From NCBI RefSeq assembly GCF_054482525.1, contig NZ_CM137006.1: DNA of 64,000 nt, one strand, 5' to 3'. This document shows positions 5,319 to 46,156 of the stretch, piece after piece. The position numbers and the translations under genes are program-made. How positions within the stretch are numbered: the first letter of the stretch is position 1; every line of letters begins with the position of its first letter. The notes under the pieces are model-generated. The model was given only the letters and a program-made list of their open reading frames with translations. It did not search any database and had not been told where the DNA came from.

Positions 5319-5447
5319 TGGTACTCCTTAATGATGCGCTATTTTACAGATGACGAACAAAGTGTTGGTTTTCATGCCTGATAAACCCAGTTCATCAGGC
5401 AATTTTACCATTGTCAGCTGTCTCTGTTTAAATCGACTATTTTGCGA

Positions 5448-7355: not shown

Positions 7356-7366
7356 TACTATTCCTT

Positions 7367-9475
7367 TCAGGCTACGGTAATCAGCCAGCAGTTGTGGATC
7401 TGGCGGTTACGGGCGAAATCCTGGGAGAGCGTTTTTTGCGTAATTTCTTGTGCTTTCAGTCCCAGTTTTGCCAGGCCGTCGAGATCCATACGGAAGCCAC
7501 GTTTGTTGTTCGAGAACATGATCGTCCCACCTGCACGCAGCAGACGTTTCAGATCTTTCATCAGCGCCAGATGATCGCGCTGAACATCAAACGCATCTTC
7601 CATTCGTTTTGAGTTAGAGAAGGTTGGCGGATCGATAAAGATCAGATCGAACTGTTCATTTGCCTCACGCAGCCACGCCAGGCAATCGGCCTGAATCAGG
7701 CGATGCGCACGCCCGGTTAGGCCATTCAGACGCAGGTTGCGTTCTGCCCACTCCAGATAAGTACGCGACATATCCACGGTGGTGGTGCTGCGTGCACCGC
7801 CTAATCCCGCGTGCACGGTGGCGCTGCCGGTATAAGAGAACAGGTTGAGGAAATCTTTGCCTTTGCTCATCTGACCGAGCATACGACGGGCGATACGGTG
7901 ATCGAGGAACAGACCGGTATCGAGGTAATCCGTCAGGTTCACCCACAAGTGAGCGTTATATTCGGTAACTTCGAGAAACTCGCCCTTCTCGCCCAGTTTC
8001 TGGTACTGATTTTTGCCCTTCTGGCGTTCACGGGTTTTCAGCACCAGTTTGTTTGGCGCAATCCCCAATACCGAAATGGTTGCAGCGATAATATCGAACA
8101 GACGCTGACGCGCTTTGTGCGCATCAATAGTTTTTGGCGGCGCATACTCCTGCACCACCACCCAATCGGCGTAGCGGTCAACTGCAACGTTGTATTCCGG
8201 TAGATCGGCGTCGTACAGGCGGTAGCATTCAATGCCTTCCTGACGCGCCCACTTCTCGAATTTTTTGAGGTTCTTACGCAGACGGTTGGCGTAGTCTTCT
8301 GCCACCATTGCCGGTTTGCTGTCTGGTGTGCTTTCGGCAACGTGGTAATTTTTCTGCACGCAGTCTAATGGACCGTTTTTCGCTTTGTACTGTTTGTCTG
8401 CACGCAACTGCAGGCAACTTAACAGATCCGGCGAGGCACTGAATAAAGAGAGATTCCAGCCACCGAACTGGTTTTTCATGATTCGGCCCAGCAGACTATG
8501 CAGCGCAATCAGCGCCGGTTCGCTGTCCAGACGTTCACCGTATGGCGGGTTGCTCAACACTGTACCGTACGGCCCTTTCGGCAGCGGATTGGTCAGTTGC
8601 GCGACATCTTTCACCTCAAAGGTGATCAGTTCACCAATCCCCGCAAGACGGGCGTTAGTGCGCGCACGTTGAATCACCCGTGCGTCGCTGTCCGAACCGT
8701 AAAAATGAGAGCTATACTCAGCCAGGCCTTTACGGGCGCGAGTTTGCGCTTCCGCTTTCACTTCCTGCCAGATAGCTTCATCATGCTGCGCCCAGCCGCT
8801 AAAGCCCCAACGCCCACGGTGCAAGCCTGGTGCGCGATCGGTCGCCAGCATCGCCGCTTCAATCAGCAACGTACCGGAACCACACATCGGATCGAGCAGC
8901 GGTGTTCCTGGCTGCCAGCCGGATCGCATCACAATCGCGGCTGCCAGGGTTTCTTTGATCGGCGCAATACCAGCACGATCGCGATAGCCACGCAGATGTA
9001 AACCATCACCACTGAGATCAAGGGCGATACTGGCGGTTTCTTTATGCAGCCAGACGTTAACGCGGATATCCGGCGCATCGCGATCAACATTTGGACGCGG
9101 CAGATTTTTCCGCGTGAAAGCATCGACAATCGCGTCTTTCACTTTCATCGCACCGTACTGACTGTTGCGGATGGTGTCATTCAAACCACTGAAGTGGACA
9201 GCGAAGGTCGCGCCAGGATTAAACATCTCTGTCCAGTTGATCGCCTGAACACCGAGATAGAGGTCTAAATCGCTGTAAACCTTACACTCGCCCAGCGGCA
9301 ACATAATACGCGAGGCCAGGCGGCTCCACATCAGGCTCTGGTAAACAAGCCGTGTGTCGCCCTTGAAATGGACCCCACCCTGAACCACCTGGCATTCAAC
9401 GGCCCCCAGGTTTTCCAGTTCAGTTTTTAACAGCTCTTCCAGCCCACGGGCCGTACTGGCAAACAGAGAATTCAT
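7367..9475 (-). CDS. rlmL: Bifunctional 23S rRNA m2G2445/m7G2069 methyltransferase RlmKL
   Basis: ORF track, 702 aa; two SAM-methyltransferase regions; conserved position next to uup. Confidence 0.95.
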
Positions 9476-9718
9476 ATCGTCACTTTTACTCTAAGAGCCT
9501 ACCGCAGTAGGCGTAATTGTTGCAGTCAGTCTGGACATGGACAGCGCGGAGAAACCGGAGCGTACACAAGTACGTGAGGATTTCGAGCACTTCCCTGGGC
9601 CAAACTGACAAATAAAATAGCCTAATGGGACAGGCGCTAAGAAAATTGTTGCGCATTATAGCTAATAAGCGCGTCATGTCATAAAGTTGAGGGCTTATTT
9701 TCATTTGAGGACCGCACC

Positions 9719-10828
9719 GTGGCGACATTAACCCGGCTTTTTATTCATCCTGTTAAATCGATGCGCGGCATTGGTCTTACACATGCTCTGGCAGATGTCA
9801 GTGGTCTGGCCTTCGATCGCATCTTTATGATCACGGAACCTGACGGTACGTTTATTACCGCTCGCCAGTTTCCGCAAATGGTACGGTTTACTCCTTCACC
9901 TGTGCATGATGGCTTGCATCTCACCGCACCAGATGGCAGTAGCGCATATGTTCGTTTTGCTGATTTCGCCACACAAGACGCACCAACCGAAGTTTGGGGC
10001 ACACATTTTACCGCGCGAATTGCGCCAGACGCGATCAACAAATGGCTAAGTGGATATTTCTCCCGCGAAGTGCAGTTGCGCTGGGTGGGGCCACAAATGA
10101 CGCGGCGCGTGAAACGCCACAACACTGTACCCCTGTCATTTGCTGATGGCTATCCTTACCTTCTTGCTAACGAAGCCTCGTTACGTGATCTCCAACAACG
10201 TTGTCCGGCCAGTGTAAAAATGGAGCAATTCCGCCCTAATCTGGTGGTTTCCGGCGCGTCAGCCTGGGAAGAAGATAGCTGGAAAGTGATTCGTATTGGT
10301 GATGTGGTGTTTGATGTGGTTAAACCTTGTAGCCGCTGTATTTTCACCACCGTCAGCCCAGAAAAAGGGCAAAAACATCCGGCAGGCGAACCATTAAAAA
10401 CATTGCAATCTTTCCGCACTGCCCAGGATAACGGCGATGTCGATTTTGGCCAGAATTTAATTGCCCGTAATAGCGGCGTAATTCGCGTTGGCGATGAGGT
10501 GGAAATTCTGGCAACGGCTCCGGCTAAAATTTACGGCGCAGCCGCCGCTGATGATACCGTCAACATCACGCAACAACCGGACGCAAATGTAGATATTGAC
10601 TGGCAGGGACAGGCATTTCGTGGAAATAACCAGCAGGTGTTGCTGGAGCAATTAGAAAATCAGGGAATTCGTATCCCTTATTCTTGCCGCGCGGGCATTT
10701 GTGGAAGTTGCCGTGTTCAGCTTTTAGAAGGCGAAGTCACGCCGCTGAAAAAATCAGCAATGGGCGATGATGGCACCATTCTTTGCTGTAGCTGTGTACC
10801 GAAGACTGCGCTTAAGCTGACGCGTTAG
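9719..10828 (+). CDS. ycbX: MOSC-domain protein with C-terminal 2Fe-2S ferredoxin domain, YcbX
   Basis: ORF track, 369 aa, GTG start; C-terminal CRAGICGSC motif typical of plant-type ferredoxin. Confidence 0.9.
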
Positions 10829-11367
10829 ACTGCCTGTTCGAGGCTGAAGCTGTCAACATTAACCTGCGGTTTCAGCCTGTCGTTCATGATTTTGATGGCG
10901 TCGCCCAGCTGCATCGCGCGACCCGCAATAACAACGCAGGGTTGTGCCAGTAGGCATAGTGCGGCATTTTCGCCAGATTCAACGACCAGCAAATTGACTT
11001 GCTCGTGAGTGTCGCTCAACCAAACGCAGGCCGCATCGCCCGGCATGGGCACCCACATTTCACCATGGGAAACAAAATGCCAGCTTTTCGGCATTTGCGG
11101 TTTGAGATAACGAATTGCTACCAGCGCATTAAGCACCAGTTCGGCTTTTTGTTCTTTAGATAAATTAAAATCGCGGCATTTTTCTTCAAATGAGAAATAG
11201 AGCGCGGCGTCATCAACGCAAAAGCCTGCGGGAGAAAAGGCATCTGGAGTCAACATTTTGCGCGCAAAACGTGAGCGAAATAGCATACCATTGGCTAAAT
11301 CGAGCATCATTCGATCGTGCTCTTCATCGTAATACCAACGCCAGTTATCGTCTGGTTTAATTCGCAT
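10825..11367 (-). CDS. zapC: Cell-division protein ZapC (180 aa)
   Basis: ORF-track 10825..11403 trimmed to the conserved start [19 protein letters not shown]; 4-nt convergent overlap with ycbX. Confidence 0.85.
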
Positions 11368-11486
11368 TTGCCTCTCCCCTACCCTATAAAACCGCAGCAA
11401 CACAATCCATTGTCGCTTCGCTTAATAACCTCAACAATAAAAGTACAAAATGTCTAAATAAGCAACAGCGATGAATATAAAACAAC

Positions 11487-11512
11487 CAGGGCTGAAAATA
11501 AAGCCCTGATTA
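11487..11512 (-). terminator. Putative pyrD terminator hairpin
   Basis: 7-bp stem CAGGGCT/AGCCCTG with a following U-rich tract on the minus strand, about 30 nt past the pyrD stop. Confidence 0.45.
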
Positions 11513-11540
11513 TCTTATAAAGAGGAATTCGAAGAAATAA

Positions 11541-12551
11541 TTAGATATGGGTAACGATTTCTTTAATCAGCGGCGGACCTTTAAAAATAAAACCAGAATA
11601 AATTTGCACCAGTGAGGCCCCCGCAGCAATCTTTTCACGCGCAGCGATAACCGAGTCAATGCCGCCAACACCGATGATCGGTAAGCGACCGTTTAATTCC
11701 TGTGACAAGCGGCGAATAATTTCTGTGCTTTTTAACTGAAGCGGACGACCACTTAAGCCACCGGTTTGATCGCAATTTTTCATTCCCTGAACCAGAGAAC
11801 GATCGAGAGTGGTATTGGTTGCAATAACGCCATCAATATTATGGCGAACTAAACTATCGGCAACCTGGATCAATTCTTCTTCAGAAAGATCCGGCGCGAT
11901 CTTCACTGCGATCGGCACATATTTATGGTGCATCGCTTGCAAATCATTTTGCTTATTTTTAATCGCGGTTAAGAGATCATCCAGCGCTTCGCCATATTGC
12001 AGTGTGCGTAGTCCTGGGGTATTCGGCGATGAAATATTGATGGCGATATATCCCGCATAAGCATAGATTTTTTCCATACAAATCAGATAGTCATCTTTAC
12101 CCTGCTCCACCGGCGTATCTTTATTTTTGCCGATGTTAATACCCAGGACGCCATCATAATGGGCTTTTTTTACGTTCTCTACGAGGTTATCAACGCCAAG
12201 ATTATTAAAGCCCATACGGTTGATCAAACCTTCGGCATCTACCAGACGAAAGAGACGCGGCTTGTCATTACCTGGCTGTGGACGTGGCGTGACGGTACCG
12301 ATCTCGATCGATCCAAATCCCATCGCGCCTAACGCGTCAATGCACTCCCCGTCTTTATCAAGACCGGCTGCCAGACCAAGCGGATTTTTAAACGTCAGGC
12401 CCATGCAGTTAACAGGTTTCGCAGGCACTTTCTGCCGCACCAGTGCTTCAAACGGCGTTCCGGTAATGCGGCGTAATTGCTGAAAAGTAAACTCATGAGC
12501 GCGCTCTGGATCGAGCTGGAAAAGGGCTTTACGAACGAAGGGGTAGTACAT
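11541..12551 (-). CDS. pyrD: Dihydroorotate dehydrogenase (quinone) PyrD (336 aa)
   Basis: ORF-track 11541..12578 trimmed to the conserved start [11 protein letters not shown]; class 2 DHODH sequence. Confidence 0.95.
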
Positions 12552-12637
12552 GAACTCTCCTGGATTCCCGGTGTGCAAACCGGGGGCGTATTATGTGCGA
12601 GTTCGGACCAAAAGGGAATTGACCTGTGGCAAAAAAA

Positions 12638-19809: not shown

Positions 19810-20385
19810 ATGCGTGTCATCACCCTGGCGGGTAGTCCTCGCTTTCCTTCTCGCTCCAGCTCCTTGCTGGAATATGCGCGGGAAAAACTGAATGGCCTGG
19901 ATGTAGAGGTTTATCACTGGAATCTGCAAAACTTTGCCCCGGAAGATCTGCTTTATGCTCGTTTCGATAGTCCGGCACTCAATACCTTCACCGAACAGTT
20001 GCAACAGGCTGACGGGCTGATTGTCGCCACGCCTGTGTATAAAGCCGCCTATTCCGGTGCGCTAAAAACCCTGCTCGACCTGCTGCCAGAACGTGCGTTG
20101 CAAGGCAAAGTGGTGCTACCGCTGGCGACGGGCGGTACGGTGGCCCATCTGCTGGCGGTCGATTATGCCCTTAAGCCAGTTTTAAGTGCGCTGAAAGCCC
20201 AGGAGATCCTGCACGGCGTGTTTGCCGATGACTCACAGGTGATTGATTACCACCACAAGCCGCAGTTCACGCCGAATTTACAAACCCGTCTTGATACCGC
20301 GCTAGAAACTTTCTGGCAGGCATTGCACCGTCGGGATGTTCAGGTTCCTGACCTTCTGTCTCTGCGAGGTAATGCCCATGCGTAA
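19810..20385 (+). CDS. ssuE: NADPH-dependent FMN reductase SsuE
   Basis: ORF track, 191 aa; first gene of ssuEADCB. Confidence 0.9.
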   Translation: MRVITLAGSPRFPSRSSSLLEYAREKLNGLDVEVYHWNLQNFAPEDLLYARFDSPALNTFTEQLQQADGLIVATPVYKAAYSGALKTLLDLLPERALQGKVVLPLATGGTVAHLLAVDYALKPVLSALKAQEILHGVFADDSQVIDYHHKPQFTPNLQTRLDTALETFWQALHRRDVQVPDLLSLRGNAHA

Positions 20386-21307
20386 GATCATTAAACTGGC
20401 GCTGGCGGGATTGCTTAGCGTCTCTACTTTTGCGGTTGCTGCAGAATCCTCGCCTGAAGCGTTACGTATAGGCTATCAGAAAGGCAGTATTGGTATGGTG
20501 CTGGCAAAAAGCCACCAGTTACTGGAAAAACGCTATCCGCAAACAAAAATCTCGTGGGTGGAGTTTCCCGCGGGACCGCAAATGTTGGAGGCGTTAAACG
20601 TTGGCAGTATTGATCTCGGCAGTACCGGAGATATTCCGCCAATCTTTGCCCAGGCTGCCGGTGCTGATTTGGTATATGTGGGCGTCGAGCCGCCGAAGCC
20701 CAAAGCCGAAGTGATTCTGGTGGCAGAAAATAGCCCGATCAAAACCGTAGCCGATCTTAAAGGTCACAAAGTTGCCTTTCAGAAAGGTTCCAGCTCTCAC
20801 AATCTTTTACTACGCGCACTACGCCAGGCCGGGCTTAAATTCACGGATATTCAGCCCACTTACCTGACGCCTGCCGATGCCCGCGCCGCGTTCCAGCAAG
20901 GTAACGTCGACGCATGGGCTATCTGGGATCCCTACTACTCCGCTGCATTATTACAGGGCGGCGTGCGGGTGTTGAAAGACGGCACCGATCTCAATCAAAC
21001 CGGATCGTTTTATCTGGCAGCTCGCCCCTATGCAGAAAAAAACGGCGCTTTTATTCAGGGCGTACTGGCAACCTTTAGTGAGGCCGATGCGTTAACCCGC
21101 TGCCAGCGCGAGCAAAGCATCGCCTTATTGGCAAAAACGATGGGCTTACCGGCCCCAGTGATTGCCTCGTATCTGGATCATCGCCCTCCCACCACCATCA
21201 AACCGGTTAACGCCGAAGTTGCCGCCTTACAGCAGCAAACGGCAGATCTGTTTTATGAAAACCGTCTGGTGCCGAAAAAAGTCGATATTCGCCAGCGTAT
21301 CTGGTAG
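20378..21307 (+). CDS. ssuA: Alkanesulfonate ABC transporter periplasmic binding protein SsuA
   Basis: ORF-track 20336..21307 trimmed to [13 protein letters not shown] (signal peptide); ATG overlaps the ssuE 3' end by 8 nt. Confidence 0.9.
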
Positions 21308-21333
21308 CTCACTCAACTGGAAGGAAAACAATT

Positions 21334-22479
21334 ATGAGTCTGAATATGTTCTGGTTTTTACCGACCCACGGTGACGGGCATTATCTGGGAACGGAAGAAG
21401 GTTCACGCCCGGTTGATCACGGTTATCTGCAACAAATTGCGCAAGCGGCGGATCGCCTGGGCTATACCGGTGTGCTGATCCCAACGGGGCGCTCCTGCGA
21501 AGATGCGTGGCTGGTTGCCGCGTCGATGATCCCGGTGACGCAACGGCTGAAGTTTCTTGTCGCCCTGCGTCCCAGCGTAACCTCACCTACCGTTGCCGCC
21601 CGCCAGGCCGCCACGCTTGACCGTCTCTCGAATGGTCGTGCGTTGTTTAATCTGGTCACAGGCAGCGATCCACAAGAGCTGGCAGGCGACGGCGTGTTCC
21701 TTGATCATAGCGAGCGCTACGAAGCCTCGGCGGAATTTACCCAGGTCTGGCGGCGCTTATTGCTGGGGGAAACCGTCAATTTCAACGGTAAACATATTCA
21801 TGTGCGCGGAGCCAAACTGCTCTTCCCGCCGATTCAACAGCCGTATCCTCCGCTTTACTTTGGCGGATCGTCAGATGTCGCCCAGGAGCTGGCGGCAGAA
21901 CAAGTTGATCTCTACCTCACCTGGGGCGAACCGCCGGAACTGGTTAAAGAGAAAATCGAACAAGTGCGGGCGAAAGCTGCCGCGCATGGACGCAAAATTC
22001 GTTTCGGTATTCGTCTGCATGTGATTGTTCGTGAAACCAACGACGAAGCGTGGCAGGCCGCCGAGCGGTTAATCTCGCATCTTGATGATGAGACTATCGC
22101 CAAAGCACAAGCCGCATTCGCCCGGACGGATTCCGTAGGACAACAGCGAATGGCGGCGCTACATAACGGCAAGCGCGACAATCTGGAGATCAGCCCCAAT
22201 TTATGGGCGGGTGTTGGCTTAGTGCGCGGCGGTGCCGGGACGGCACTGGTGGGCGATGGTCCGACGGTCGCTGCGCGAATCAACGAATACGCTGCACTTG
22301 GCATCGACAGTTTTGTGCTTTCGGGCTACCCGCATCTGGAAGAAGCGTATCGGGTTGGCGAATTGCTGTTCCCGCATCTGGATGTCGCCATCCCGGAAAT
22401 TCCGAAGCCGCAGCCGCTGAATCCGCAAGGCGAAGCGGTGGCAAATGATTTTATCCCCCGTAAAGCCGCGCAAAGCTAA
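21334..22479 (+). CDS. ssuD: FMNH2-dependent alkanesulfonate monooxygenase SsuD
   Basis: ORF track, 381 aa; luciferase-like monooxygenase. Confidence 0.95.
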
Positions 22480-22489
22480 GGAATAAATA

Positions 22490-23281
22490 ATGGCAACGCC
22501 AGTGAAGAAGTGGTTATTGCGCGTTGCCCCCTGGTTTTTACCGGTGGGCATCGTGGCGGTGTGGCAACTGGCCTCCTCAGTTGGCTGGCTGTCGACGCGT
22601 ATTTTGCCCTCTCCGGAAGGAGTGGTGACGGCGTTCTGGACGCTCTCCGCCAGCGGCGAATTGTGGCAGCATCTGGCGATCAGCTCCTGGCGGGCGTTGA
22701 TTGGCTTTTCAATTGGCGGATCGCTGGGGTTGATTTTGGGACTGATTAGCGGGCTATCTCGCTGGGGAGAACGGCTGCTGGATACCTCCATTCAGATGTT
22801 GCGTAACGTGCCGCATCTGGCGCTGATCCCGCTGGTGATTTTGTGGTTTGGCATTGATGAATCCGCAAAAATCTTTCTGGTGGCGCTCGGCACGCTATTC
22901 CCCATTTATATCAACACCTGGCACGGCATCCGTAATATCGATCGCGGTCTGGTGGAAATGGCGCGTAGCTATGGATTATCCGGCATCCCGCTGTTTATCC
23001 ATGTGATCCTGCCTGGTGCCCTGCCCTCCATTATGGTCGGCGTGCGTTTTGCGTTGGGCCTGATGTGGCTGACGCTGATTGTTGCCGAAACCATTTCTGC
23101 CAATTCCGGCATTGGTTATCTGGCGATGAATGCGCGGGAGTTTCTGCAAACGGACGTGGTGGTTGTCGCCATTATTCTTTACGCCCTGCTCGGCAAACTT
23201 GCTGACGTCAGCGCGCAGCTGTTAGAGCGCCTCTGGTTGCGCTGGAACCCGGCTTATCATTTGAAGGAGGCCACGGTATGA
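22490..23281 (+). CDS. ssuC: Alkanesulfonate ABC transporter permease SsuC
   Basis: ORF track, 263 aa; multi-TM permease. Confidence 0.95.
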
Positions 23282-24045: not shown

Positions 24046-24262
24046 TATGCCGGATGTGGCGCACAAAACCAGCATTTCCAACGGACTTGTGGGCCTGATA
24101 AGACGCGTCAAGCGTCGCATCAGGCAGTTGGACCCGGTTGCCGGATGCGCGTAAACGCCTTATCAGGAAGTTGGGCACGGCTGCCGGATGCGGCGTGAAC
24201 GCCTTATCCAGCCTACAAAACCAGCATTTTCAACGGACTTGTAGGCCTGATAAGACGCGTCA
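24046..24262. repeat. BIME: cluster of REP palindromic units between ssuB and pepN
   Basis: Several REP-like palindromes (GCCGGATGCGGCGTGAACGCCTTATCCAGCCTAC, GGCCTGATAAGACGCGTCAAGCGTCGCATCAGGC) separated by a repeated linker AAAACCAGCATTT(C/T)CAACGGACTTGT; the last unit is interrupted by the IS. Confidence 0.85.
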
Positions 24263-24313: not shown

Positions 24314-24835
24314 ATGAAACATTCATTTGAAGTAAAACTTGCCGCTGTAAATCACTACCTGGCTGGTCATGCAGGCATCATTTCTACGGCAAAACTCTTT
24401 CAACTTTCTCACACCAGCCTCTCACACTGGATTAATCTTTTTCTTCTTCACGGTCCTCGGGCACTGGATTGCAGACACAAGCGTAGCTATTCTCCTGAAG
24501 ATAAACTTTGCGTGGTTCTTTATGCTCTCGGGCATTCTGAGTCTCTACCCCGGGTAGCTGCCCGGTTTAACATTCCCAGCCACAACACGGTTAAAAACTG
24601 GATAAAAGGCTACCGCAAATCTGGTAATGAGGCCTTTATCAGGCGCAGGAAGGAGAAAAGCATGACCCGTTCTGATGATACCCATGAAAACGAGGCAAAC
24701 ATGACGCCGGAAGAGATGAAGAATGAGCTGCGTTATCTTCGCGCAGAAAATGCATATCTGAAAGCCATGCAGGAGCATCTCCTGGAAAAAAAGCGCCAGG
24801 AGCTGGAGAAAAAACGAAAGTCATCCGGAGCCTGA
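24314..24835 (+). CDS. IS3-family transposase OrfA (helix-turn-helix and leucine-zipper part)
   Basis: ORF-track 24305..24835 (GTG) with likely ATG at 24314 (MKHSFEVKL) preceded by AGGTG; ends just after the slippery heptamer A-AAA-AAG at 24787-24793. Confidence 0.85.
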   Translation: MKHSFEVKLAAVNHYLAGHAGIISTAKLFQLSHTSLSHWINLFLLHGPRALDCRHKRSYSPEDKLCVVLYALGHSESLPRVAARFNIPSHNTVKNWIKGYRKSGNEAFIRRRKEKSMTRSDDTHENEANMTPEEMKNELRYLRAENAYLKAMQEHLLEKKRQELEKKRKSSGA

Positions 24836-24939
24836 GGTGCGGACACTGCCAGTCTGACCTGTTAAAGGCTGCAGGGCTGGCCAGAAGCACGCTGTACTAC
24901 CAGCTGTCACTGCAGAAGGCTAAGGACAAGTATGCTGAT

Positions 24940-25694
<755 letters not shown>

Positions 25695-31982: not shown

Positions 31983-33056
31983 ATGATGAAGCGCAATATT
32001 CTGGCAGTGATCGTCCCTGCTCTGTTAGTAGCAGGTACTGCAAACGCTGCAGAAATCTATAACAAAGATGGCAACAAAGTAGATCTGTACGGTAAAGCTG
32101 TCGGTCTGCATTATTTTTCTAAAGACAATGGTGTAAACAGTTACGGCGGAAACGGCGACAAAACTTATGCCCGTCTTGGTTTTAAAGGGGAAACACAAAT
32201 CAATTCCGATCTGACCGGCTACGGTCAGTGGGAATATAACTTCCAGGGTAACAACTCTGAAGGCGCTGATGCCCAGAAAGGTAACAAAACTCGTCTGGCA
32301 TTCGCAGGTCTGAAATTCGCTGATGCGGGTTCTATCGACTACGGTCGTAACTACGGTGTGGTTTACGACGCACTGGGTTACACCGATATGCTGCCTGAGT
32401 TTGGCGGTGACACGGCATACAGCGATGACTTCTTCGTTGGTCGTGTAGGCGGCGTTGCTACCTATCGTAACTCCAACTTCTTCGGTCTGGTTGACGGCCT
32501 GAACTTTGCCGTTCAGTACCTGGGCAAAAACGAACGTGCTGGTATTCCTGAGCGTTCCAACGGCGACGGCGTCGGTGGCTCTATCAGCTACGAATTCGAA
32601 GGCTTTGGTATCGTAGGTGCTTACGGTGCAGCAGACCGTACCGACGCCCAGGAAGCCGAATTCCGCGGTCAGGGTAAAAAAGCTGAACAGTGGGCAACTG
32701 GTCTGAAGTATGACGCGAACAACATCTACCTGGCAGCGAACTACGGTGAAACCCGTAACGCTACGCCAATTGAAGGCGGCTTCGCCAACAAAACGCAAGA
32801 CGTTCTGTTAGTTGCGCAATACCAGTTCGATTTCGGTCTGCGTCCGTCCATCGCTTACACCAAATCTAAAGCGAAAGACGTAGAAGGTATCGGTGATGTT
32901 GATCTGGTGAACTACTTTGAAGTGGGCGCAACCTACTACTTCAACAAAAACATGTCCACCTATGTTGACTACATCATCAACCAGATCGATTCTGACAACA
33001 AACTGGGCGTAGGTTCTGACGACACCGTTGCAGTGGGTATCGTTTACCAGTTCTAA
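31983..33056 (+). CDS. ompF: Outer-membrane porin OmpF (357 aa, loop-variant allele)
   Basis: ORF track; signal peptide [22 protein letters not shown], mature N-terminus [11 protein letters not shown]-terminal VYQF; differs from remembered K-12 OmpF (362 aa) mainly in predicted external loops. Confidence 0.95.
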
Positions 33057-33081
33057 TAGCACACCTCTTTGTTAAATGCCG

Positions 33082-35883: not shown

Positions 35884-37731
35884 TTACCTGATTAATTGTT
35901 CCGCTTTCGATACGATTTGCGAGCTGGATCGCGCAGGCAGATCATAATTGTAAATATCTGTACGATACTGGGTACGACCATCTGCACCAACAAAGGCAGT
36001 CAGGTAGTAGAGATTCACCGGAATCGACTGCCGAATATTGACGTAACGCGTATCGCCCTGCTTCAGCGCATCAGAAATACGTTTGTCATTCCATCCTGCA
36101 TCCTGCAACAGCATATTCGCCAGATCGGAAGCTTTATTCACTCGTACACAGCCTGAGCTCAATGCGCGTGTATCACGCTTGAACAGATTGTGGTTCGGCG
36201 TGTCATGCAAATAAATGGCCTCTGAACTCGGCATATTGAATTTATAGCGCCCCAGCGAGTTCCGTGGGCCTGGAGCCTGCTGGAAGCGAAACGGTAAATT
36301 CGAGGCCGTGATTGTAGACCAGTCAACCTGCCATGGGTCAATCGCTTCTCTGCTGTTCCAGCCGCGCATCACCGTATAGCCATGGCTTTCGAGATATCCC
36401 GGATCGTTGCGCACTTTCGGCAGAATATCTTTACGTGCCAGAGTTGGTGGTACGTTCCACGGCGGGTTTACCACTACGTTGTTAAGTGCACTGCTCATCA
36501 TCGGCGTTTTGCGATCGGGGCGACCGACAATGACTCGCGAATCCAGCACCTGATTGCCGTTCTGATAGTAGACCAGCGAATAGGCCGGAATGTTAACCAT
36601 GATCCCGGTAGAAAGCTCTGTTGGCAGCAAGCGCAATCGCTGGATGTTGAGTGCCAACACGCCAGCACGCTGGGCGGGCGTTACGTTTAACCAGTCACGC
36701 GTTGCCGGGCCAATAGCGCCATCTGCTCCCAATCCTTGCCATGCCTGAAAACGTTTAACGGCTTCCACCAGTTCATTATCGTAGGCGGCACGAACGGCAG
36801 GCGCAGGTTTACTACGAGACGTCGTTTGCTTGTCCATCGGCTTAGTTTCTGCTGTTTCAACAGTAACAGCGGATGGGCTGACTACCGTGTCAGTTGGCGT
36901 GTCATCGCCAGGTAGAGTAATTTTCGGCCCCCCGTCCAACATGCCTGTGCGTTGCAATATTTCGCGCAACGCCGGTACGTCGTTACTCCACTGCCCTGGG
37001 CGCAACGTTGCTTTACCGGTCAGTTGAGGCCACGGTTTGGTGTCACTGAGTAAGGCCAGTAACGATTCATGCATCGCCGCATATTGCGGATGCTGCGGTG
37101 CCAGTCCTGCAACAAACGTCGGCAATTGACCTTTATCCAGCGCCAGCTGCCATTGGTTAATCACCGAAAGCGGCGGCGTTGCAAGCGCATAAGGTTTACT
37201 GCTATATAGCCAGCGAGTGCCTTTGACCGGAATATTTGCAATGAAATGGAGATAGCCCATCATCGCATCAGAGAGCACGACGTCGCGTGCCATCCCGTTA
37301 ACACCAGGATCGGTCAGTAACTCTACCCATTTATTAAACTGCGGCTGGAAACCGGCAATCGCCACCTCGGCCAGCTGTTGCTGGAAGGCTTTAACAGCAT
37401 CACGGTTTTCCCACATGGGTTGCATATCGCGTGCGGCATACAACAGTTGAAGCTGGTTAAGATAAACCGGCTTGTAACCTGCGGGTAATTGAGATTCGAT
37501 TTGCGTGCGGGCTTTTTCTGCCGCACCTTCAGGCAATGGCTGGATCCCCGCCATTATTGCCGTGGCTTGCGCCTGCGGCAGTGCCTCGCCCTGTTCACTG
37601 ACAGCCACCGGGCTGTCGCCAGGGATTACTTCAGGCTCATCGGCCTGCGCATTGAACAGTGGAGCGAATGTTACGGCCAGGCACAAACTGATTGCCGACA
37701 GCCGACGACCACACATCATATTAAGCAACAT
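35884..37731 (-). CDS. ldtD: L,D-transpeptidase LdtD (YcbB)
   Basis: ORF track, 615 aa; YkuD-type catalytic motif [23 protein letters not shown]. Confidence 0.9.
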
Positions 37732-37991
37732 CCCTTGCCCCCTGTTTTTATCATACTCTGAATAGCCAGGCTGTTATTTTACGACTTGCCTGTACAACGC
37801 CAATACTCACGAAAGTATGACGAGCAAGCCTGTTACTCATCAGGCTTATCTTCAGTATATAAACGCCGATACGTTTTTACATAACCTAATGTAAAGAAGT
37901 TTAAAGAAAAGCGCGCCGTAATGTGCCACTTTTTTAGTGCAGAAACGGAGTTTTCGGAAAAAGAAAAGGCGGCATTGCTGCCGCCTTCATT

Positions 37992-40900
37992 TTAACTCGC
38001 CTGGGAAGGCGCTTCGTCACTTCCTGGAAGCGTTTCAGGGAGTTGCGGCGCAAATCCTCGCAGGCCGACGACGTGAACGTGTTCGGTATTCTGGAAGACT
38101 TTACGTACCAGTTTATAGGTGGTGCCTTTTTCCGGACTGATATTTTCCGGCGCTGCGATGATGAGCTGCATTTGCAAACGTTCACACAATTCAAACAGCG
38201 TGGCGATAGAACGGGCGTCCAGTCGCGCGGCTTCATCGAGGAACAGCAGGCGGCAAGGAGAGATATCTTTACCGCGCAGGCGGCGAGATTCATCTTCCCA
38301 GCTTTGTACCACCATCACCAGAATCGACATACCGGTACCAATCGCCTCACCGGTCGACAGAGCGCCAGATTCTGCGCGCAGCCAGCCATCGGAACCACGG
38401 TTAACCTCAACTTCCATTTCCAGATAGTTGCGGTAATCCAGCAGTTCTTCGCCAATGGTCTGCGGCGTGCGCTGCCCCATATCAATCTGCGGATTAAGAC
38501 GCTGATACAATTTCGCCAGTGCTTCTGAGAAGGTCAGACGGTTGCTGTTAAACAGATCCTGATGCTGCTCGTGCTGTTCAGAGAGCACATCCAGCAGCAT
38601 GGCGTGCGTTTCACGCACGTTCACGTTGAGGCGCACGCTGTTCACCTGACCAAACGATACGTTCTGCAACCCCTGGTTGAGCATACGGATACGGTTCTGC
38701 TCGCGCTGAATGGTTTTGCGAATGATGTTCGCCACGCTGCGGGAACTGATCGCCAGTTTCTGTTCACGGGAGGTTAATTCTTCGGTCAGACGGCTAAGTT
38801 CGATCTCCATCTGTTCGATAGCTTCCACCGGATCATCGGTACGAATAATATCCTGACGAATACGTTCACGCAGATGCTGATAAACCGCCACGAAGAACTG
38901 AATTTTACGTTCCGGACGTTTTGGATCTTCCGACATCCGCAGCACGTCGCGCAGATGTTCGTTATCCGCCACCGCCAGACGCAGCGCACCTAACGCCTTA
39001 TCCGACATGGAACGCAAATCATCAGCGGAGAGATAAGCCAGCTCACGACGGTGTAAGCGGCGTTCAACGCCGTTATCTTTCACCATGCGCATGACTGCAC
39101 ACCAGCCCGCTTTCGCGGTCACTACCTGCTCGCGCATCTCAAAGTAATCACGCTCCAGCTTGCGCAGTTTGCGGGTCAGGTTGTCCATCTCCGCTTCGCA
39201 GAATGTAAGCGCTTTTTCCAGTTGATTGCGTCGTGAACGGTTATTGCTCAGTTGCGCGTGCAGCTCGTCACGGCGAATACGTGCCCGCTCTTCTGCCCCG
39301 CTATCAGCACGCACGCCGATATCCTGCAATTCACGTTGCAGATCGTTAAGTAGCTCTTTTTTGGTGTCATACGAACTTTTCAGCGAAGCCAGCACCTGGT
39401 TGTACTGACTCAACTGCGCTGCGTGTCCGCGCAACGCTTCACGCGCGCGGGTACGCTCCGCTTCCGCCTGTTCCAGACGTTCACGCAGTTTTTCGTTGAG
39501 ATCGCTGTTACCGCTAAGCATTTCTGCCGAGTCAGAGTAGCTAAAGTGCGCACGACGCTGCACCACTTCCGTCAGGGCAAACGCCTGCTGACGGGCATCG
39601 CGCTGCATCTGCTGAGAGTACGCGTACTCTTCTTTTAACTGTTCGAACTGTTCCGGGTCGCTCTGCAATACCGAAACGATCGGTTCCAGTTTCGCCAGTT
39701 GATTACCGAACTGCTGAACAAAACGCGCGGCTTCCTGGGCTTCATCCAGACGTTCGCGGATTTCATCGACGCGATCTGCCAGGCTGTCATCAGCCAACAG
39801 GTTGAGACGCGGCAGAATGCGGTTCAGCGCCGTAACGCCCTCTTTCGCCTGCTCAAATTGAATACGCTGCTGCTGGTTATCATTTTCATGATTACTCAGC
39901 GCCCGCTCCAGTTCGACGCGACGGCTGTTCAGTTGACGGATTTCTGCTTCCGGGTCAGACTCAAACGCCACCGCCAGATGACTACCGATAAAGCGGCTGA
40001 ACGCCTGATGCAGACGCTGGGTTTTCTGTACATCAAAGGAGAGCGTGGCGAAGCGTTCGGAAAGCACTTCACGCTCGGCATGGAGGCTTTCAATACGGCT
40101 TTCACGCGCAGCACGACCAAACAGCGGCACTTCCGGGAAACGTGAATAACGCCACTGACGATCGGCGATTTTCACCACCACCGCTTTTTCCAGCTCATCA
40201 ACGCTGAACACGCTGTCATCGAATGACTGCGGATCCCCTTCGATCAGATAGAGATCTTCCGGGCAATCGGTCAAGCCTTCCAGGTGTTCGGTTACCTGTG
40301 ACAGATCTGGCACCACGATGGCGTGGCGGGACGGGCCATACAGCGCCGAGAAGTACGGCGCATCTTCCAGGCTAACGTCGTCATAAATTTCGGACAGCAG
40401 CACGCCGCCAAAACGCTCCGCCAGCGCATTCAAACGCTGGTCTTCAGAACCACCTGGCTGGCTTAAACGTTCGATCTCTTCATCGACGGCGTTTTTGCGC
40501 GCGCCTACTTCATCGCGTTCAACAATGGCTTCGCGCTCACGCTCCAGCAACTGTTGCAGATATTCGGTGACATCCTGGCTAGAGGAGAACTCTTCGCCGC
40601 ACTGTTCGCTCAACTGGTTGAGGCTGTTTTGCGCAGCCAGCCAAACCGGCGCACGCTGCATCAAACTCTGAATGCGAGACTGCAGCTGTTCCTGCTCCTG
40701 ACGCAGTGCCATACGCTCTTCGCGGGCGTTAGACACGCTATCGGAAAGAGAGGCAATGCGCGCTTCCAGCTCCTGATGCAGAGCTTCCAGTTCATCAATA
40801 TCAAAATTCTTGCCCTGACGTTTGCAGAAATCTGCCAGCAGGCGTTCGGCTTCTTGCTGCTCGCGCAGACGCTGTTCCAGTTCGCTTAAGCGCATCCGCA

Positions 40901-42452
40901 ACGGTTGAACCTGCTCTGCCAGGTGACGCTGATCGACCCCTTCGCGCAGCAGTTCGCGAGCGACATCCCACGCCTCGTTACGCGCCAGCGGGCCGTTGAT
41001 TGCCACCACCAGCTGATAAGCCTGCTCAAACTGGCTGTGCGCGGTTTGCGCCATGCTCATTTTCTGCTCAAGAGAGAGCATTTTTTCAGTCGCTTCCAGC
41101 TCTTTCGCCTGGAAGGTTTCCAGCCATTCGGCGGCGCTGTCGGCGGTTAAGTCCGGCAGATGGCACAGTTCTTTGGCACGATTAAGCGCAGCAATCGCCT
41201 GGTTATACTGGATCGCGCGCGTTTGCTGGACGTCCAGCGCCTGCTGATAGTCAGCAAGCTGGCTTTTCAGCTCGTCCACTTCCAGTTCGGCAGCTTCCGC
41301 ACGAGCCTCGTTCTCTTCCTGGCGTTCGATGGCTTCTGCCACCACTTCGTTTTGCTCTTCCAGACGGATCTGCAGCTCATCGAGATCCGCTTCGTAACGT
41401 TCGATCTTCTCCTGCTGACGCAGTGCGGTTTGCACCAGGTTCAGGTGATCGCTGGCTGCCTGATAATCCGCTTCCAGATCGCCTTCGGCACCGTTGTGCT
41501 CTGCCAGCTCACGCGCCATATCGACGTGTTTGTACTGCTCAGCCGCCAGTTGCTGACGCGAAGTATGTAGCTCGCGACGAAACTCCAGGGCTTTGTCGAG
41601 ATGGACACGGCGCTCGTTGGCGTGACGCATGTAGTCCGCCGCCACGTAGTTGGTAGCTTCGCTGATCAGATGCTTAAACAGGTCACGGTCCGACTGGGTG
41701 ACACGAATCGCTTCCAGCGTCATGCGGTTTTCACGCAGCGCCGCTTCCATGTCCTGGAACGCTTTACGCACGCCGCTGTTTTCCGGCAACAGGTAGTCGC
41801 GCAGAGAACGGGTAATGGCACTGGAGATCCCGCCATACAGCGAAGCTTCGATCAGACGATAGAATTTGCTACGGTCAGATGCGGAGCGCAGACGACGCGC
41901 GATGATGCCCAGATCGAACATCAGCGAGTGGTAATCGGTAATGGAGTTGAACTGTTTAAACTGCACGCCTTCCATCGCCTCGAGCTTGTCTTTCAGCTCG
42001 TTAAGCGGCAGCACGCGCGCCTGGCGTTCGTTCAGAGTTTCGGTCACCAGCTGTGTCGGCTGCACCGACATCGGCAGTCCCTGAATGGCAAATGGTTTGA
42101 TATCCACTTTACGATCGCGTCCGGCAACCTGTTGCAGACGCACACCGACCACCACGCGCTGGTGGCGCGAGTTAATGGTGTCGAGCATCGAATAACAGAC
42201 ACCCGCTTTCAGCTTACCGTGCAGACCTTTATCACGCGAACCGCTGGTGGCCCCGGCTTCCGTAGTGTTACGGAAATGCAGCAGGGTCAGGTCGGGGATC
42301 AGCGCCGTAACGAACGCCGCCATGGTGGTGGATTTACCCGCCCCGTTACCGCCAGAAAGCGTCGTGACCAGCTCGTCAAGGTCAAAAGTTCGGGCAAAAA
42401 AGCCGTTCCAGTTAATCAGCGTCAGTGAGCGAAATTTACCGCGTTCAATCAT
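37992..42452 (-). CDS. mukB: Chromosome partition condensin MukB
   Basis: ORF track, 1486 aa; N-terminal Walker [10 protein letters not shown], long coiled coils, C-terminal head. Confidence 0.95.
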
Positions 42453-43156
42453 TATTCTTCCTCTCCGCTATCTGGCTGACTCTCTTCGGTTTCATCGTTG
42501 AGTTGCAGATGATTTTCAATCGGCATTGCTTCGCCATCACGAATCAGGCGACGCTGTGCTTCACGGGGATCGTCGCCAGCACGCACATCGGCTCCGAAGC
42601 GGAACACCGATTCGGTAATGCGGAACTTGCTGCTGTCGTGGCCCATAAACCACACCATGCCCAAACGACGCAGACGGTTGAGCGAAGAACGTACTTTCTC
42701 CTGCAACTTCTGCCGGTCAACGTCTGAACCGGTTGAACGGTTGTTCACCAGTTTCAGCAGTTTCGCTTCATCGGCCAGGGTGAGCAGTTCGTCGTACAGT
42801 TCCTGTTGAGTAAAAATCCCCTCATTCGCCAGCCGTTCCGGGCTGAGATAGAGATAACAGAGGATTTTCCCGACCATCATATCCAGTTCCGACAAGACGG
42901 AACGAGGGATCAGCGTGGTGGAACGTGGGCGTAAATAGAAGAACCCTTCCGGTGCACGAATAAGCTCAACGTTATAACGCGCGTAAAACTCTTCCAGATA
43001 TTCCTGAAAATCCATCAGGAATGCATGATTATCCAGTTCGTCGAGGCCAATATGGCGGCCTGAACGTAAGGCGCTATCCAGCGCCGGAAATAACGGATTC
43101 GCCAGCGCCTGCGCCAGCTTAACCGGCATCACTTGTTCAATATTTGTCGATGACAT
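42452..43156 (-). CDS. mukE: Condensin subunit MukE
   Basis: ORF-track 42452..43183 trimmed to [16 protein letters not shown] (234 aa); a later ATG (MPVKLAQ) is also possible; TAATG overlap with mukB start. Confidence 0.85.
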
Positions 43157-44459
43157 GCGCCTGTACCTTGGCTCCGTAATCATTAATCGGCTGCCATTTC
43201 GCTGGCAGTCCGGTGAAATCTGCTTGCGCTACGCCAAGACGTACCGCCTGATCAATAACAATGCGCGCAACGTCAAAGTGACGTGCACGCGGATACTGTG
43301 ACAGATATTCGCGTACCACCAGACCAAGATCCAGCGGCACTTGTCTGGTTTTGTACACGGCAAGTTGTTCTTCGATGATCGCCGCCAGCTGTTCGCGGAT
43401 CTCGTTAAACTCTTCGTATTCCAGATCCTCAGGAAGTTCCCCAGTCACTTCTTCATCGCGCAGTGCCATCTCTTCGTCACGCATATCCAGCAGACGATCG
43501 GCATTGGCATAAGTTAGCGCCCACGGCTCATCAAAATAGGTTTGTACCGACTGACGTAACCGCTGAGCAAAGACACGGTTTTTATCCATATCGATAGCGG
43601 TACGGATAAATTTATGTACGTGGCGGTCGTAGCCAATCCACAAATCGATGGATTGCTGGCCCCAGCTGATAATACGGTCAAGTTTGCTCTGCAGATCGAA
43701 TACCAGACGATCGACAAAATGCAGATCGTCATGGGTCATCGTCGCATCCTGAATGCGCAACAGATTAGCCTGCAATTTGTCGCCTGCCGCTTCCAGCGTA
43801 TCCTGCAATTCACGCAGCGTTCCGGAAGTTTCCGAAAGCAACAATTCACAGCTGGAGATCGCCGCCCGCCAGTCTTTGTTCAGCAACTGGGCGATATCGT
43901 CCTTCACCTGCTGCTGCTGTTCGTCCATCAGACGTTGCGTCAGGTCGATACTGTCGAAAATTTCTGCTACCGAATATTTCAGTGGCGCATAAACATTACG
44001 GTGCCAGTGAAATTCATCACCGCCCTCTTCGGCGGCATCTGCCGCGCGTTTGAGCTCACCCGCCACAATCGACAACTGCATAGAAAGGCGCAGCGTAGAA
44101 AACTCGCGCTGACGGATGTAATAGTCAGTAATGCCGATGCCGAGCGGCGTCAGACGGTAAATTGCGTTCCCTTCCGCCTGCTCGCTGGTAAAGCGGTTCA
44201 GCAGACGTTGACGCACCATGTCGTTGATCGCGTTGTTGGCGCGCACGCCGATGGTTTCGCTGGTTTGCTCAAACGCATCACTCACATGGCGGAATGCATC
44301 CACCAGCTCGCCTTCACTCATCTCACCATCCAGACGCTCGCCGTTCAGCGTGGCAACCGCCAGCAGAAAAGAGAGTCGGTCTACCGGCAGCGAGATGGAG
44401 AAGTCATTTTTTCTGGCCCAGGCAACCAGTTCGGGGACTGTCTGGGAAAATTCACTCAT
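43137..44459 (-). CDS. mukF: Condensin kleisin subunit MukF
   Basis: ORF track, 440 aa; overlaps mukE start by about 20 nt. Confidence 0.95.
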
Positions 44460-45241
44460 ACTTTATCCTTGCTCTGCGGTTTGCGCGCGGTGACATGAAT
44501 ATAACGCCCCAGGGTAATATACGGTTCCTGACGGCAATAACGCGTTTCTAATTCAAGTAATGCTTCATAGCAGTCGCGCTGCTGGTGCTTCTCGCGCAGA
44601 TAATCATGAAACACGCGAACGCCTGTCTTACCCATAATTTGCCAACCAGCTTCTTCCAGCCACAGATAAACCTGCGCCGGGTCGCGTGGATAATCTGGCG
44701 AAAGCGTCCGTTTTTTCTTTTTCGGCATTCCCGCCTGCACGTAATCAAAATTCCCGGCGACCATGTTATGCATCAGCAAGCCGTGCGCATTGTAGAACAT
44801 TAACGACAACACACCGCCTGGACGCAACACTGACCACAGGGTCTGTAATACGCTGCGGGGATCGGCCACCCACTCGAGCACCGCATGGAACAATATCAGA
44901 TCAACGGGCGTTTCCAAATGCGAAGCAACATCCTGAGCGGCGCAATGTATAAATTGCATGTTGTCGCTCACACCTTTTGCTTCTGCCGCCTGTTTTGCGC
45001 GGTCGATCATCTGCGCAGAAAGATCGCATAAAATGACCTGATGCCCGCGCTCAGCCATTTTGATTGCGGTCTGCCCTTCTCCACCGCCAGCATCCAGCAC
45101 ACGCAGTTTTTGCGGGCCCATTTCCGCCAGCACACGATCGAGATCCTGCCACAGAATAGCCTGTCGAAGCTGCCCTTTGGTGGTGCCGTAAATGTTACGG
45201 GAAAACTTTTCCGCAATATCATCAAAATTGCGATCCTGCAT
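44456..45241 (-). CDS. cmoM: SAM-dependent methyltransferase CmoM (SmtA)
   Basis: ORF-track 44456..45253 (GTG) trimmed to [13 protein letters not shown]; SAM-binding motif VLDAGGGEG; ATGA overlap with mukF start. Confidence 0.9.
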
Positions 45242-45376
45242 TGCTTTCTCCACCGGTTGGCTAAGACGTTTTCTGATAAAGACGCTATTTTGTCACAGCC
45301 ACGGCGAGAATGAACCCGTCTGGTGTAATATCGCTGGCGATCCCTTGCTATATGGTTAAAAAAGGAACCAGAAAGG

Positions 45377-46156
45377 ATGCTTTTTACACTGAAAAAAGTG
45401 ATTGGCAATATGTTGCTGCCACTTCCGCTGATGTTGTTGATTATTGGCGCTGGCCTGGCGCTGCTGTGGTTTAGCCGTTTTCAAAAAACCGGGAAGATTT
45501 TTATTAGCATTGGGTGGCTGGCGCTCTTGTTATTGAGTTTGCAACCGGTAGCCGACCGCCTGCTGCGTCCCATCGAAAGCACCTATCCGACATGGAATAA
45601 TTCGCAAAAAGTGGACTATATCGTGGTGCTCGGAGGTGGTTATACCTGGAACCCGCAGTGGGCACCAAGCTCGAATTTAATCAATAACAGTCTGCCCCGC
45701 CTGAATGAAGGTATTCGCTTATGGCGCGAAAATCCGGGATCAAAACTGATCTTCACGGGAGGCGTAGCAAAAACCAATACGGTGAGTACAGCGGAAGTAG
45801 GTGCCAGAGTTGCGCAATCGCTGGGCGTGCCGCGCGAGCAAATTATCACCCTGGATTTGCCAAAAGATACCGAAGAAGAAGCTGCGGCAGTGAAACAGGC
45901 GATTGGTGACGCCCCTTTCCTGCTGGTGACCTCCGCATCACATCTGCCGCGGGCGATGATCTTTTTTCAGCAGGAAGGGCTAAATCCGCTGCCAGCCCCG
46001 GCGAATCAGTTGGCCATCGACTCGCCGCTTAATCCGTGGGAACGGGCAATCCCTTCTCCGGTTTGGTTGATGCATAGCGATCGTGTTGGCTATGAAACGC
46101 TTGGCCGCATCTGGCAGTGGCTAAAAGGTTCGTCAGGCGAGCCACGGCAAGAGTGA
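45377..46156 (+). CDS. elyC: Envelope biogenesis factor ElyC (YcbC), DUF218 family
   Basis: ORF track, 259 aa; N-terminal TM segments; conserved position. Confidence 0.85.
   Translation: MLFTLKKVIGNMLLPLPLMLLIIGAGLALLWFSRFQKTGKIFISIGWLALLLLSLQPVADRLLRPIESTYPTWNNSQKVDYIVVLGGGYTWNPQWAPSSNLINNSLPRLNEGIRLWRENPGSKLIFTGGVAKTNTVSTAEVGARVAQSLGVPREQIITLDLPKDTEEEAAAVKQAIGDAPFLLVTSASHLPRAMIFFQQEGLNPLPAPANQLAIDSPLNPWERAIPSPVWLMHSDRVGYETLGRIWQWLKGSSGEPRQE

Follow-up and report, generated by a model that had tools for sequence, protein, structure and literature searches.

The window analysed here is a stretch of 64,000 nucleotides (nt) from assembly GCF_054482525.1, contig NZ_CM137006.1, and the subject of this report is a group of four genes on its minus strand, cmoM, mukF, mukE and mukB. 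The locus is the known Escherichia coli (E. coli) cmoM (formerly smtA)-mukF-mukE-mukB operon; in the favoured and probable reading, ribosomes can reinitiate at the overlapping stop and start codons and MukE is made mainly from the upstream one (ATG1, 43156) of two possible start codons. What was noticed is a textbook operon, correctly read, and the cmoM-mukFEB overlaps are already known and are an ordinary bacterial arrangement. An earlier note on this DNA had named the four genes and described their junctions as a shared ATGA, an overlap of about 20 nt and a shared TAATG; these coordinates proved right to the base on the minus strand, and the gene identities were borne out by RefSeq and Pfam.

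The junctions were read on the minus strand between positions 42300 and 45500, with a list of open reading frames (ORFs) and a scripted extraction of the junctions. This segment is 100% identical to that of E. coli PCN033 and is found in 5425 of the 5426 complete E. coli genomes, and the whole 64-kb window differs from PCN033 at 7 positions. The RefSeq annotation of both PCN033 and K-12 MG1655 gives cmoM, mukF, mukE and mukB, overlapping by 4, 20 and 1 nt, and places the start of mukE at ATG1. Compared with MG1655, there are 163 substitutions over 8.6 kb and a single MukE residue differs (N226S); the sequences of the cmoM/muk junctions are the same in both. The order cmoM-mukF-mukE-mukB and the shared direction are confirmed by the ORFs, by the Pfam domains of all four proteins and by RefSeq. 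In relation to the E. coli K-12 operon b0921-b0924, the genes, their order, their strand relationship and the junctions are the same, and there is no difference of substance, the window being another strain. The genes and junctions are as follows.

44456..45241, minus strand: cmoM, a tRNA cmo5U34 methyltransferase of 261 amino acids (aa), from ORF, RefSeq and Pfam class I methyltransferase domains; ATG at 45241, stop codon TGA at 44458-44456, Shine-Dalgarno (SD) motif GGAG 6 nt 5' of the ATG.
44456..44459, minus strand: ATGA shared by cmoM and mukF, the cmoM TGA (44458-44456) lying on the mukF ATG (44459-44457).
43137..44459, minus strand: mukF, the kleisin subunit of MukBEF, 440 aa, from ORF, RefSeq and Pfam (KicB, MukF_M and MukF_C span residues 3-440).
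43156-43154 and 43139-43137, minus strand: mukE ATG1 and mukF stop codon TGA, the two ends of the 20-nt mukF/mukE overlap.
42452..43156, minus strand: mukE, 234 aa from ATG1; Pfam PF04288 with E = 4.6e-127, residues 10-232 matching profile positions 1-227.
43129-43127, minus strand: mukE ATG2 (MPVKLAQ...), 27 nt 3' of ATG1 (MSSTNIEQ...) and 7 nt past the mukF stop; it would give 225 aa.
42450..42454, minus strand: TAATG shared by mukE and mukB (mukE TAA 42454-42452, mukB ATG 42452-42450), an overlap of 1 nt.
37992..42452, minus strand: mukB, the SMC ATPase subunit, 1486 aa, from ORF, RefSeq and Pfam N-terminal, hinge and Walker B domains.

A 243-aa ORF that opens at a third in-frame ATG (43183) was also considered as a form of mukE and set aside, its first codon being ACG in 18 of 81 related sequences, so that it is not a conserved start.

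The smtA-mukF-mukE-mukB operon of E. coli was described by Yamanaka et al. in 1995/1996, as credited in passages of PMC4255302, PMC3871593 and PMC9239193, and SmtA was renamed CmoM once it had been shown to methylate cmo5U34 in tRNA (PMC4737166). It has been reported that MukB rises 6.3-fold when Para takes the place of the region upstream of smtA (PMC7163298). In a study of rifampicin kinetics, smtA-mukFEB was treated as a single long mRNA that is degraded co-transcriptionally (PMC4332155), and an RNA-seq analysis of Dickeya dadantii, in which Nanopore long reads are shown, gives smtA-mukFEB as one transcription unit (PMC9239193). The sequence features at the two ends, a promoter-like block upstream and a terminator hairpin downstream, would be consistent with such co-transcription:

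45287..45314, minus strand: probable main operon promoter, with -35 TTCATT (45314-45309), a 16-nt spacer, TG (45295-45294) and -10 CAAAAT (45292-45287).
37965..37988, minus strand: intrinsic-terminator-like hairpin of 10 pairs (6 G-C) followed by TCTTTTT, beginning 4 nt past the mukB stop.

The upstream block is called the probable main promoter on the strength of a heuristic position weight matrix (PWM) match and of conservation: the TGACAAAATA block does not vary among 76 species and TTCATT hardly does, in an intergenic region that is otherwise variable.

Overlaps of this kind are common in the window itself, where 10 of the 41 co-directional neighbour pairs overlap, and the presence of overlaps between the muk genes is therefore unremarkable. 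Five of the ten overlap by 4 nt (msbA/lpxK, ycaR/kdsB, cmoM/mukF, ssuB/ssuC and pqiB/pqiC), and there are further overlaps at ssuA/ssuE (8 nt), elfC/elfG (10 nt) and ycbV/ycbF (35 nt); all are stop/start overlaps like the muk junctions, with no difference in kind. Among the unidirectional pairs of E. coli, 707 of 2987 (24%) are spaced by -8 to +6 nt, most often by -4 and next by -1 and -8 (PMC10666635). Of the junctions in the operon, only mukF/mukE, with its 20 nt, falls outside this common range.

The conservation of the junctions was followed by a genome scan with a 7-sequence MukE alignment, which gave 80 species, all Enterobacteriaceae, and more distant lineages were taken individually. 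A scorable mukF/mukE junction was present in 79 of the 80 species, so that together with PCN033 there are 80 loci besides the window (81 sequences with it). In all 80 loci the 20-nt mukF/mukE overlap, ATG1 and ATG2 are invariant, which shows that the overlap is under constraint. The other two junctions move: cmoM/mukF overlaps by 4 or 8 nt or is separated by a 3-nt gap, and mukE/mukB overlaps by 1 nt in most loci, by 4 nt in three and by 8 nt in two. Conservation of the overlaps across Enterobacterales, which had been proposed as a check, thus holds for the 20 nt of mukF/mukE (invariant in the 80 loci and kept in Yersinia, Erwinia and the divergent L085), and not for the exact geometry of cmoM/mukF and mukE/mukB. 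The individual relatives are listed below, with overlaps in nt as positive numbers.

Yersinia (L090): cmoM/mukF +4, mukF/mukE +20, mukE/mukB +4.
Erwinia (L091): cmoM/mukF +8, mukF/mukE +20, mukE/mukB 0 (abutting).
L085 (54% MukE identity, methyltransferase gene upstream): cmoM/mukF +8, mukF/mukE +20, mukE/mukB +7.
L087 (mukF cut at the contig end): mukF/mukE +8, mukE/mukB +4.
L088 (mukF cut at the contig end): mukF/mukE +32, mukE/mukB +11.
L089 (mukF cut at the contig end): mukF/mukE 1-nt gap, mukE/mukB +8.
L082 (AT-rich, divergent gene upstream of mukF and no methyltransferase there): mukF/mukE 34-nt spacer, mukE/mukB +1.
L084 (AT-rich, mukF near the contig end): mukF/mukE 85-nt spacer, mukE/mukB +1.

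In the AT-rich lineage of L082 and L083 there is no methyltransferase gene directly 5' of mukF, the neighbour there being divergent. From these comparisons, tight mukFEB junctions are the rule, their exact geometry drifts, and the link to cmoM is the least fixed of all.

Before each downstream start there is an SD-like motif within the preceding gene, which is conserved and well spaced for mukF and mukB and weaker for mukE:

44466..44470, minus strand: AAGGA, the SD of mukF, inside the end of cmoM and 6 nt 5' of the ATG, with -5.2 kcal/mol to the anti-SD; it is kept in every junction variant listed.
42466-42457, minus strand: GGAGAGGAAG, the SD of mukB, with AGGA 6 nt before the ATG and the core conserved across junction variants.
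43175-43172 and 43169-43166, minus strand: GGAG and AAGG, SD-like motifs of mukE ATG1, 14 and 9 nt before it and with weaker spacing.

For ATG2 no SD was found (-0.2 kcal/mol to the anti-SD). Synonymous variability was measured on a 76-species alignment of the operon as the 12-codon mean of third-position variability, with 2000 permutations. Its mean over the operon is about 0.28-0.32, and only 3-8% of third positions do not vary at all. Against this background, three stretches are frozen, and in each of them the observed minimum is reached by none of the 2000 permutations:

44403..44459, minus strand: mukF codons 1-19, minimum 12-codon mean 0.021 against 0.275 for the whole gene.
43140..43199, minus strand: mukF codons 421-440, minimum 0.023 against 0.275; this stretch holds the mukE initiation region and the 20-nt overlap.
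mukE codons 1-14, the third frozen stretch.

At the start of mukF the frozen sites reach further into the gene than at other starts. Codons 1-19 are probably a translation-initiation region that is kept unstructured; the cmoM/mukF junction folds less strongly than shuffled sequences (z = +1.07), as would be expected if such an open region were selected for. Alternatively, they may be the target of a small RNA (sRNA) or of a protein. A search of the operon for Rfam families gave no match.

On this basis the following course of translation is proposed. Ribosomes that end cmoM or mukE would stop atop the next start codon and could reinitiate at the overlapping ATG with the aid of the local SD, by which mukF output would be tied to cmoM and mukB output to mukE, and fresh initiation would still be possible at both. 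MukE would be initiated mainly at ATG1 (43156), which falls in the final 20 nt of mukF and has the conserved GGAG/AAGG region upstream to serve it, and this independent initiation could supply MukE in excess of MukF. ATG2 would be a possible minor reinitiation start, its 225-aa product lacking only a disordered tail. MukBEF has been found to assemble as B4E4F2, with about two MukE per MukF (PMC8602292, PMC6907758); since MukE must exceed MukF, independent initiation at mukE is required besides any reinitiation. The overlaps of 4 nt (cmoM/mukF) and 1 nt (mukE/mukB) match the geometry of termination-reinitiation, and by analogy with the couplings studied by Huber et al. in 2019/2023 (PMC6728339, PMC10666635) coupling at these two junctions is plausible: they share the -4/-1 geometry and the SD in the upstream gene, and the products of mukF, mukE and mukB belong together in one heteromeric complex, a class enriched in short overlaps (PMC10666635). 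Differences from those systems are that the muk pairs do not belong to the tested set, that mukF/mukE overlaps by 20 nt and that CmoM is no subunit of the complex. The geometry of mukF/mukE is non-canonical for reinitiation from either start, with 20 nt of overlap from ATG1 and ATG2 lying 7 nt past the stop. The earlier note had taken the overlaps to suggest translational coupling of a tRNA-modification methyltransferase with the condensin subunits; coupling is plausible at ATGA and TAATG, and the tie of CmoM to the condensin subunits goes too far.

For mukE, the same note had regarded the start as ambiguous between ATG1 and ATG2, and the ambiguity is real and already recognised. E. coli MukE stands in the PDB both in the 234-aa form (3EUH, 9GMB, 9GMD) and in the 225-aa form (7V8P and the tagged 3RPU), and the MukE protein record of MG1655 stands at version 2. 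The start is thus annotated inconsistently, with the Pfam model and some crystal constructs at Met10, and RefSeq and other structures at Met1. The start of the PF04288 profile at residue 10 would mean that the family profile was built on the shorter MukE form.

The sequence comparison favours the annotated ATG1 as the conserved main start. The frozen block of mukF sits 1-45 nt 5' of ATG1, a position that suits the initiation region of ATG1 and not that of ATG2. In addition, the MukF His codon is CAT and never CAC in all 81 sequences, while neighbouring synonymous sites vary, which means that ATG1 is preserved. In L085, ATG1, the 20-nt overlap and the N-terminal MSS are all present and Pro stands at the position of ATG2; P0197 likewise has no Met there. 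A homologue in which the mukE start is clear of mukF encodes a similar N-terminus, MNENLQDLISTKLAAA. Among 219 family members the lead before the conserved FP motif usually has 16-22 residues; it has 22 in the ATG1 form and 13, the short extreme of the family, in the ATG2 form.

Several points weigh against this reading, both as to coupling and as to the start of MukE. As to coupling, five native E. coli pairs with a 4-nt overlap have been put to reporter tests, and coupling was strict in three, about 60% in a fourth and absent from the fifth, bioBF, itself an ATGA pair (PMC6728339); a literature search for coupling of the muk pairs found no paper, and a search for ribosome profiling of the muk genes, or for cmoM treated jointly with them, found none either. 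RNA structure at the three junctions did not go beyond that of shuffled controls (z = +1.07, -0.62 and -0.34), and coupling mediated by an SD-masking hairpin is unsupported. As to the start, the first nine MukE codons are unlike ordinary coding sequence: codon 3 is Ser in some sequences and Leu in others, in step with a synonymous site of mukF, every substitution in codons 8-9 is non-synonymous, and third positions vary in the ordinary way only beyond ATG2. The nine residues between ATG1 and ATG2 lie outside the Pfam MukE model, which begins at residue 10; the AlphaFold predicted local distance difference test (pLDDT) score is below 50 for residues 1-7, the first helix begins at residue 12, and the 225-aa form has been crystallised. 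These nine extra residues look like a disordered, loosely constrained tail. Furthermore, a 2026 paper on recoding reports that Syn61 still carries forbidden codons, with mukE named as one of the essential genes concerned (PMC13287592); the leftover codons are attributed there to unannotated genes and to altered gene coordinates. We infer that the forbidden codons of mukE are TCA TCG, codons 2-3 in the extension. In that case, Syn61 derivatives being viable without the matching tRNAs, MukE initiated at ATG1 would seem to be dispensable or bypassed.

From these points it could be held that MukE is mainly the 225-aa protein, made from ATG2 by reinitiation after the mukF UGA, and that ATG1 is a by-product of the MukF His-Val codons. 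The lack of a coding-type pattern of substitution in codons 2-9, the disordered tail, the shorter constructs (7V8P, 3RPU) and the tolerance of forbidden codons in Syn61 all speak for it. So does Met10, which is the same in all 80 scorable Enterobacteriaceae loci, whereas Q8 and V9 beside it vary. To these may be added a study of MazF cleavage, in which mukE is listed with an ACA that is cut at a distance of 7 nt from its start (PMC5001579). ACA triplets lie on the minus strand both 7 nt 5' of ATG2 (43134-43136) and 8 nt 5' of ATG1 (43162-43164); in our own reading the distance of 7 nt fits the former, and it probably refers to an older annotation from ATG2. An ATG2 start nevertheless seems rather unlikely. 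ATG2 has no SD, and the frozen block and the constant CAT codon both belong to ATG1. L085 and P0197 do without Met at that position, L085 keeping ATG1 and the overlap all the same. The non-overlapping homologue still encodes a similar extension, a 13-residue lead before FP would stand at the short extreme of the family, and the efficiency of reinitiation drops with distance, even at +2 to +14 nt (PMC10666635). The annotated ATG1 is accordingly kept as the preferred start. The matter is of practical weight for recoding, in which an essential gene has kept forbidden codons on account of faulty annotation (PMC13287592).

The serine codons of mukE just mentioned (TCA TCG, codons 2-3, 43148-43153, minus strand) are of the kind removed in Syn61, and the tRNA that decodes TCA, tRNA-Ser(UGA), is a CmoM substrate. 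A link of CmoM and tRNA-Ser(UGA) to the mukE TCA was considered and set aside as a probable coincidence, since the overlapping Val-Ile codons of MukF dictate TCA and codon 3 is TTG (Leu) in most species.

A stronger form of coupling would make the translation of mukF, mukE and mukB wholly dependent on ribosomes arriving from cmoM, and so tie condensin to CmoM in function. ATGA and TAATG are the classic geometry of termination-reinitiation (PMC6728339), and the enrichment of short overlaps among complex subunits points the same way (PMC10666635). The order cmoM-mukFEB is retained across Enterobacterales and in one more distant lineage, and a smtA-mukFEB operon is predicted in Vibrio fischeri. 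Such strict dependence is nevertheless very unlikely. The cmoM/mukF junction shifts between +4, +8 and a 3-nt gap, the L082/L083 lineage has no methyltransferase gene 5' of mukF, and mukF and mukE are parted by the spacers of 34 nt in that lineage and of 85 nt in L084. Conserved SDs before mukF and mukB and SD-like motifs before mukE would allow each gene its own initiation, CmoM stands outside the MukBEF complex, and one-for-one reinitiation cannot yield MukE and MukF at 2:1 (PMC8602292). One of the five tested pairs was uncoupled, and there is a conserved promoter-like site within cmoM. The simplest account of why a tRNA methyltransferase gene stands with those of condensin is a shared transcription unit and not a functional coupling.

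This promoter-like site brings in another possibility, namely that mukFEB is partly transcribed without cmoM and that mukF then initiates on its own SD, uncoupled from cmoM. The site is as follows.

44890..44917, minus strand: candidate internal sigma-70 promoter in cmoM, with -35 TTGGAA (44917-44912), a 16-nt spacer and -10 TATTGT (44895-44890); TG at 44898-44897 and a Dam site GATC at 44902-44899 lie in the spacer.

It falls within cmoM codons 106-119, where synonymous variation is suppressed (P = 0.006). Its key -10 adenine stands at the third position of a rare Ile codon, ATA-116, and is A in 76 of 76 species, whereas an ordinary Ile codon is unchanged in about 60% of species; ATA occurs only twice in the 1134 codons examined, both times in the low-variation stretches of cmoM. 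The TG and the bases T-12, A-11 and T-7 are retained in Yersinia and Erwinia, the site ranks second among the promoter-like sites in the 7.6 kb scanned, and the SD of mukF, on which such a transcript would depend, is invariant. However, the PWM score of 9.85 is not above the mean best match of 9.98 in shuffled 2-kb sequences, and a simple promoter scan of 37500-45800 found nothing on the minus strand inside the operon. The encoded VDLILFH lies in the methyltransferase fold, so that the conservation is partly at the protein level. The rifampicin kinetics (PMC4332155) and the long reads (PMC9239193) were read as one transcription unit, and the site is not conserved in the distant L085. Transcription of mukFEB from this candidate has some chance of being real, though a limited one, and the single operon transcript with ATG1 as the main mukE start is still preferred. 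If the internal promoter were real, strains in which only the promoter upstream of cmoM has been replaced would not fully control MukBEF expression. It is unlikely that the candidate, which falls within a reported SeqA-binding region, gives a cmoM-independent and possibly replication- or methylation-sensitive route to mukFEB, and that in addition two MukE isoforms (234 aa by SD-directed initiation at ATG1 and 225 aa by reinitiation at ATG2 after the mukF stop) help to set the 2:1 ratio of MukE to MukF.

Elsewhere in cmoM, codons 88-101 (44939-44980, minus strand) also show reduced synonymous variation (P = 0.003). The other ATA codon, codon 98, lies in this stretch, being ATA or GTA in 68 of 76 species, together with a weak -10-like hexamer TACATT. 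The top PWM match in mukF (TTGGCT-16-TAAATT, 43636-43609) was rejected as a promoter, its hexamers varying at every third codon position like coding sequence.

GATC sites are denser in cmoM (8.9/kb) and mukF (8.3/kb) than in the window (4.7/kb). Over 2-kb stretches the density is highest at about 5000-9000 (uup/rlmKL), and an additional GATC-dense stretch lies at about 20000-23000 (ssu genes). It has been reported that the stable SeqA-binding targets outside oriC include the cmoM/mukF locus (43137-45241) and the uup-rlmKL-pyrD locus (5448-12551) (PMC2912659); two reported SeqA-binding loci thus fall within this one window.

As for the rest of the window, transfer of the PCN033 annotation places an IS3-family IS1397 transposase gene with a programmed frameshift at 24314-25662, between pepN and ssuB, and an Rfam match to naRNA4 (REP-derived; 24092-24169, minus strand) adjoins it. 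In the window ompF (31983-33071, plus strand) is an intact ORF of 362 codons; in PCN033 it is annotated as a pseudogene with an internal stop, and one of the 7 differences between the two sequences lies in this gene. Upstream of pyrD there is a match to the Rfam PyrD leader (97.9 bits; 12546-12619, minus strand), as expected for E. coli.

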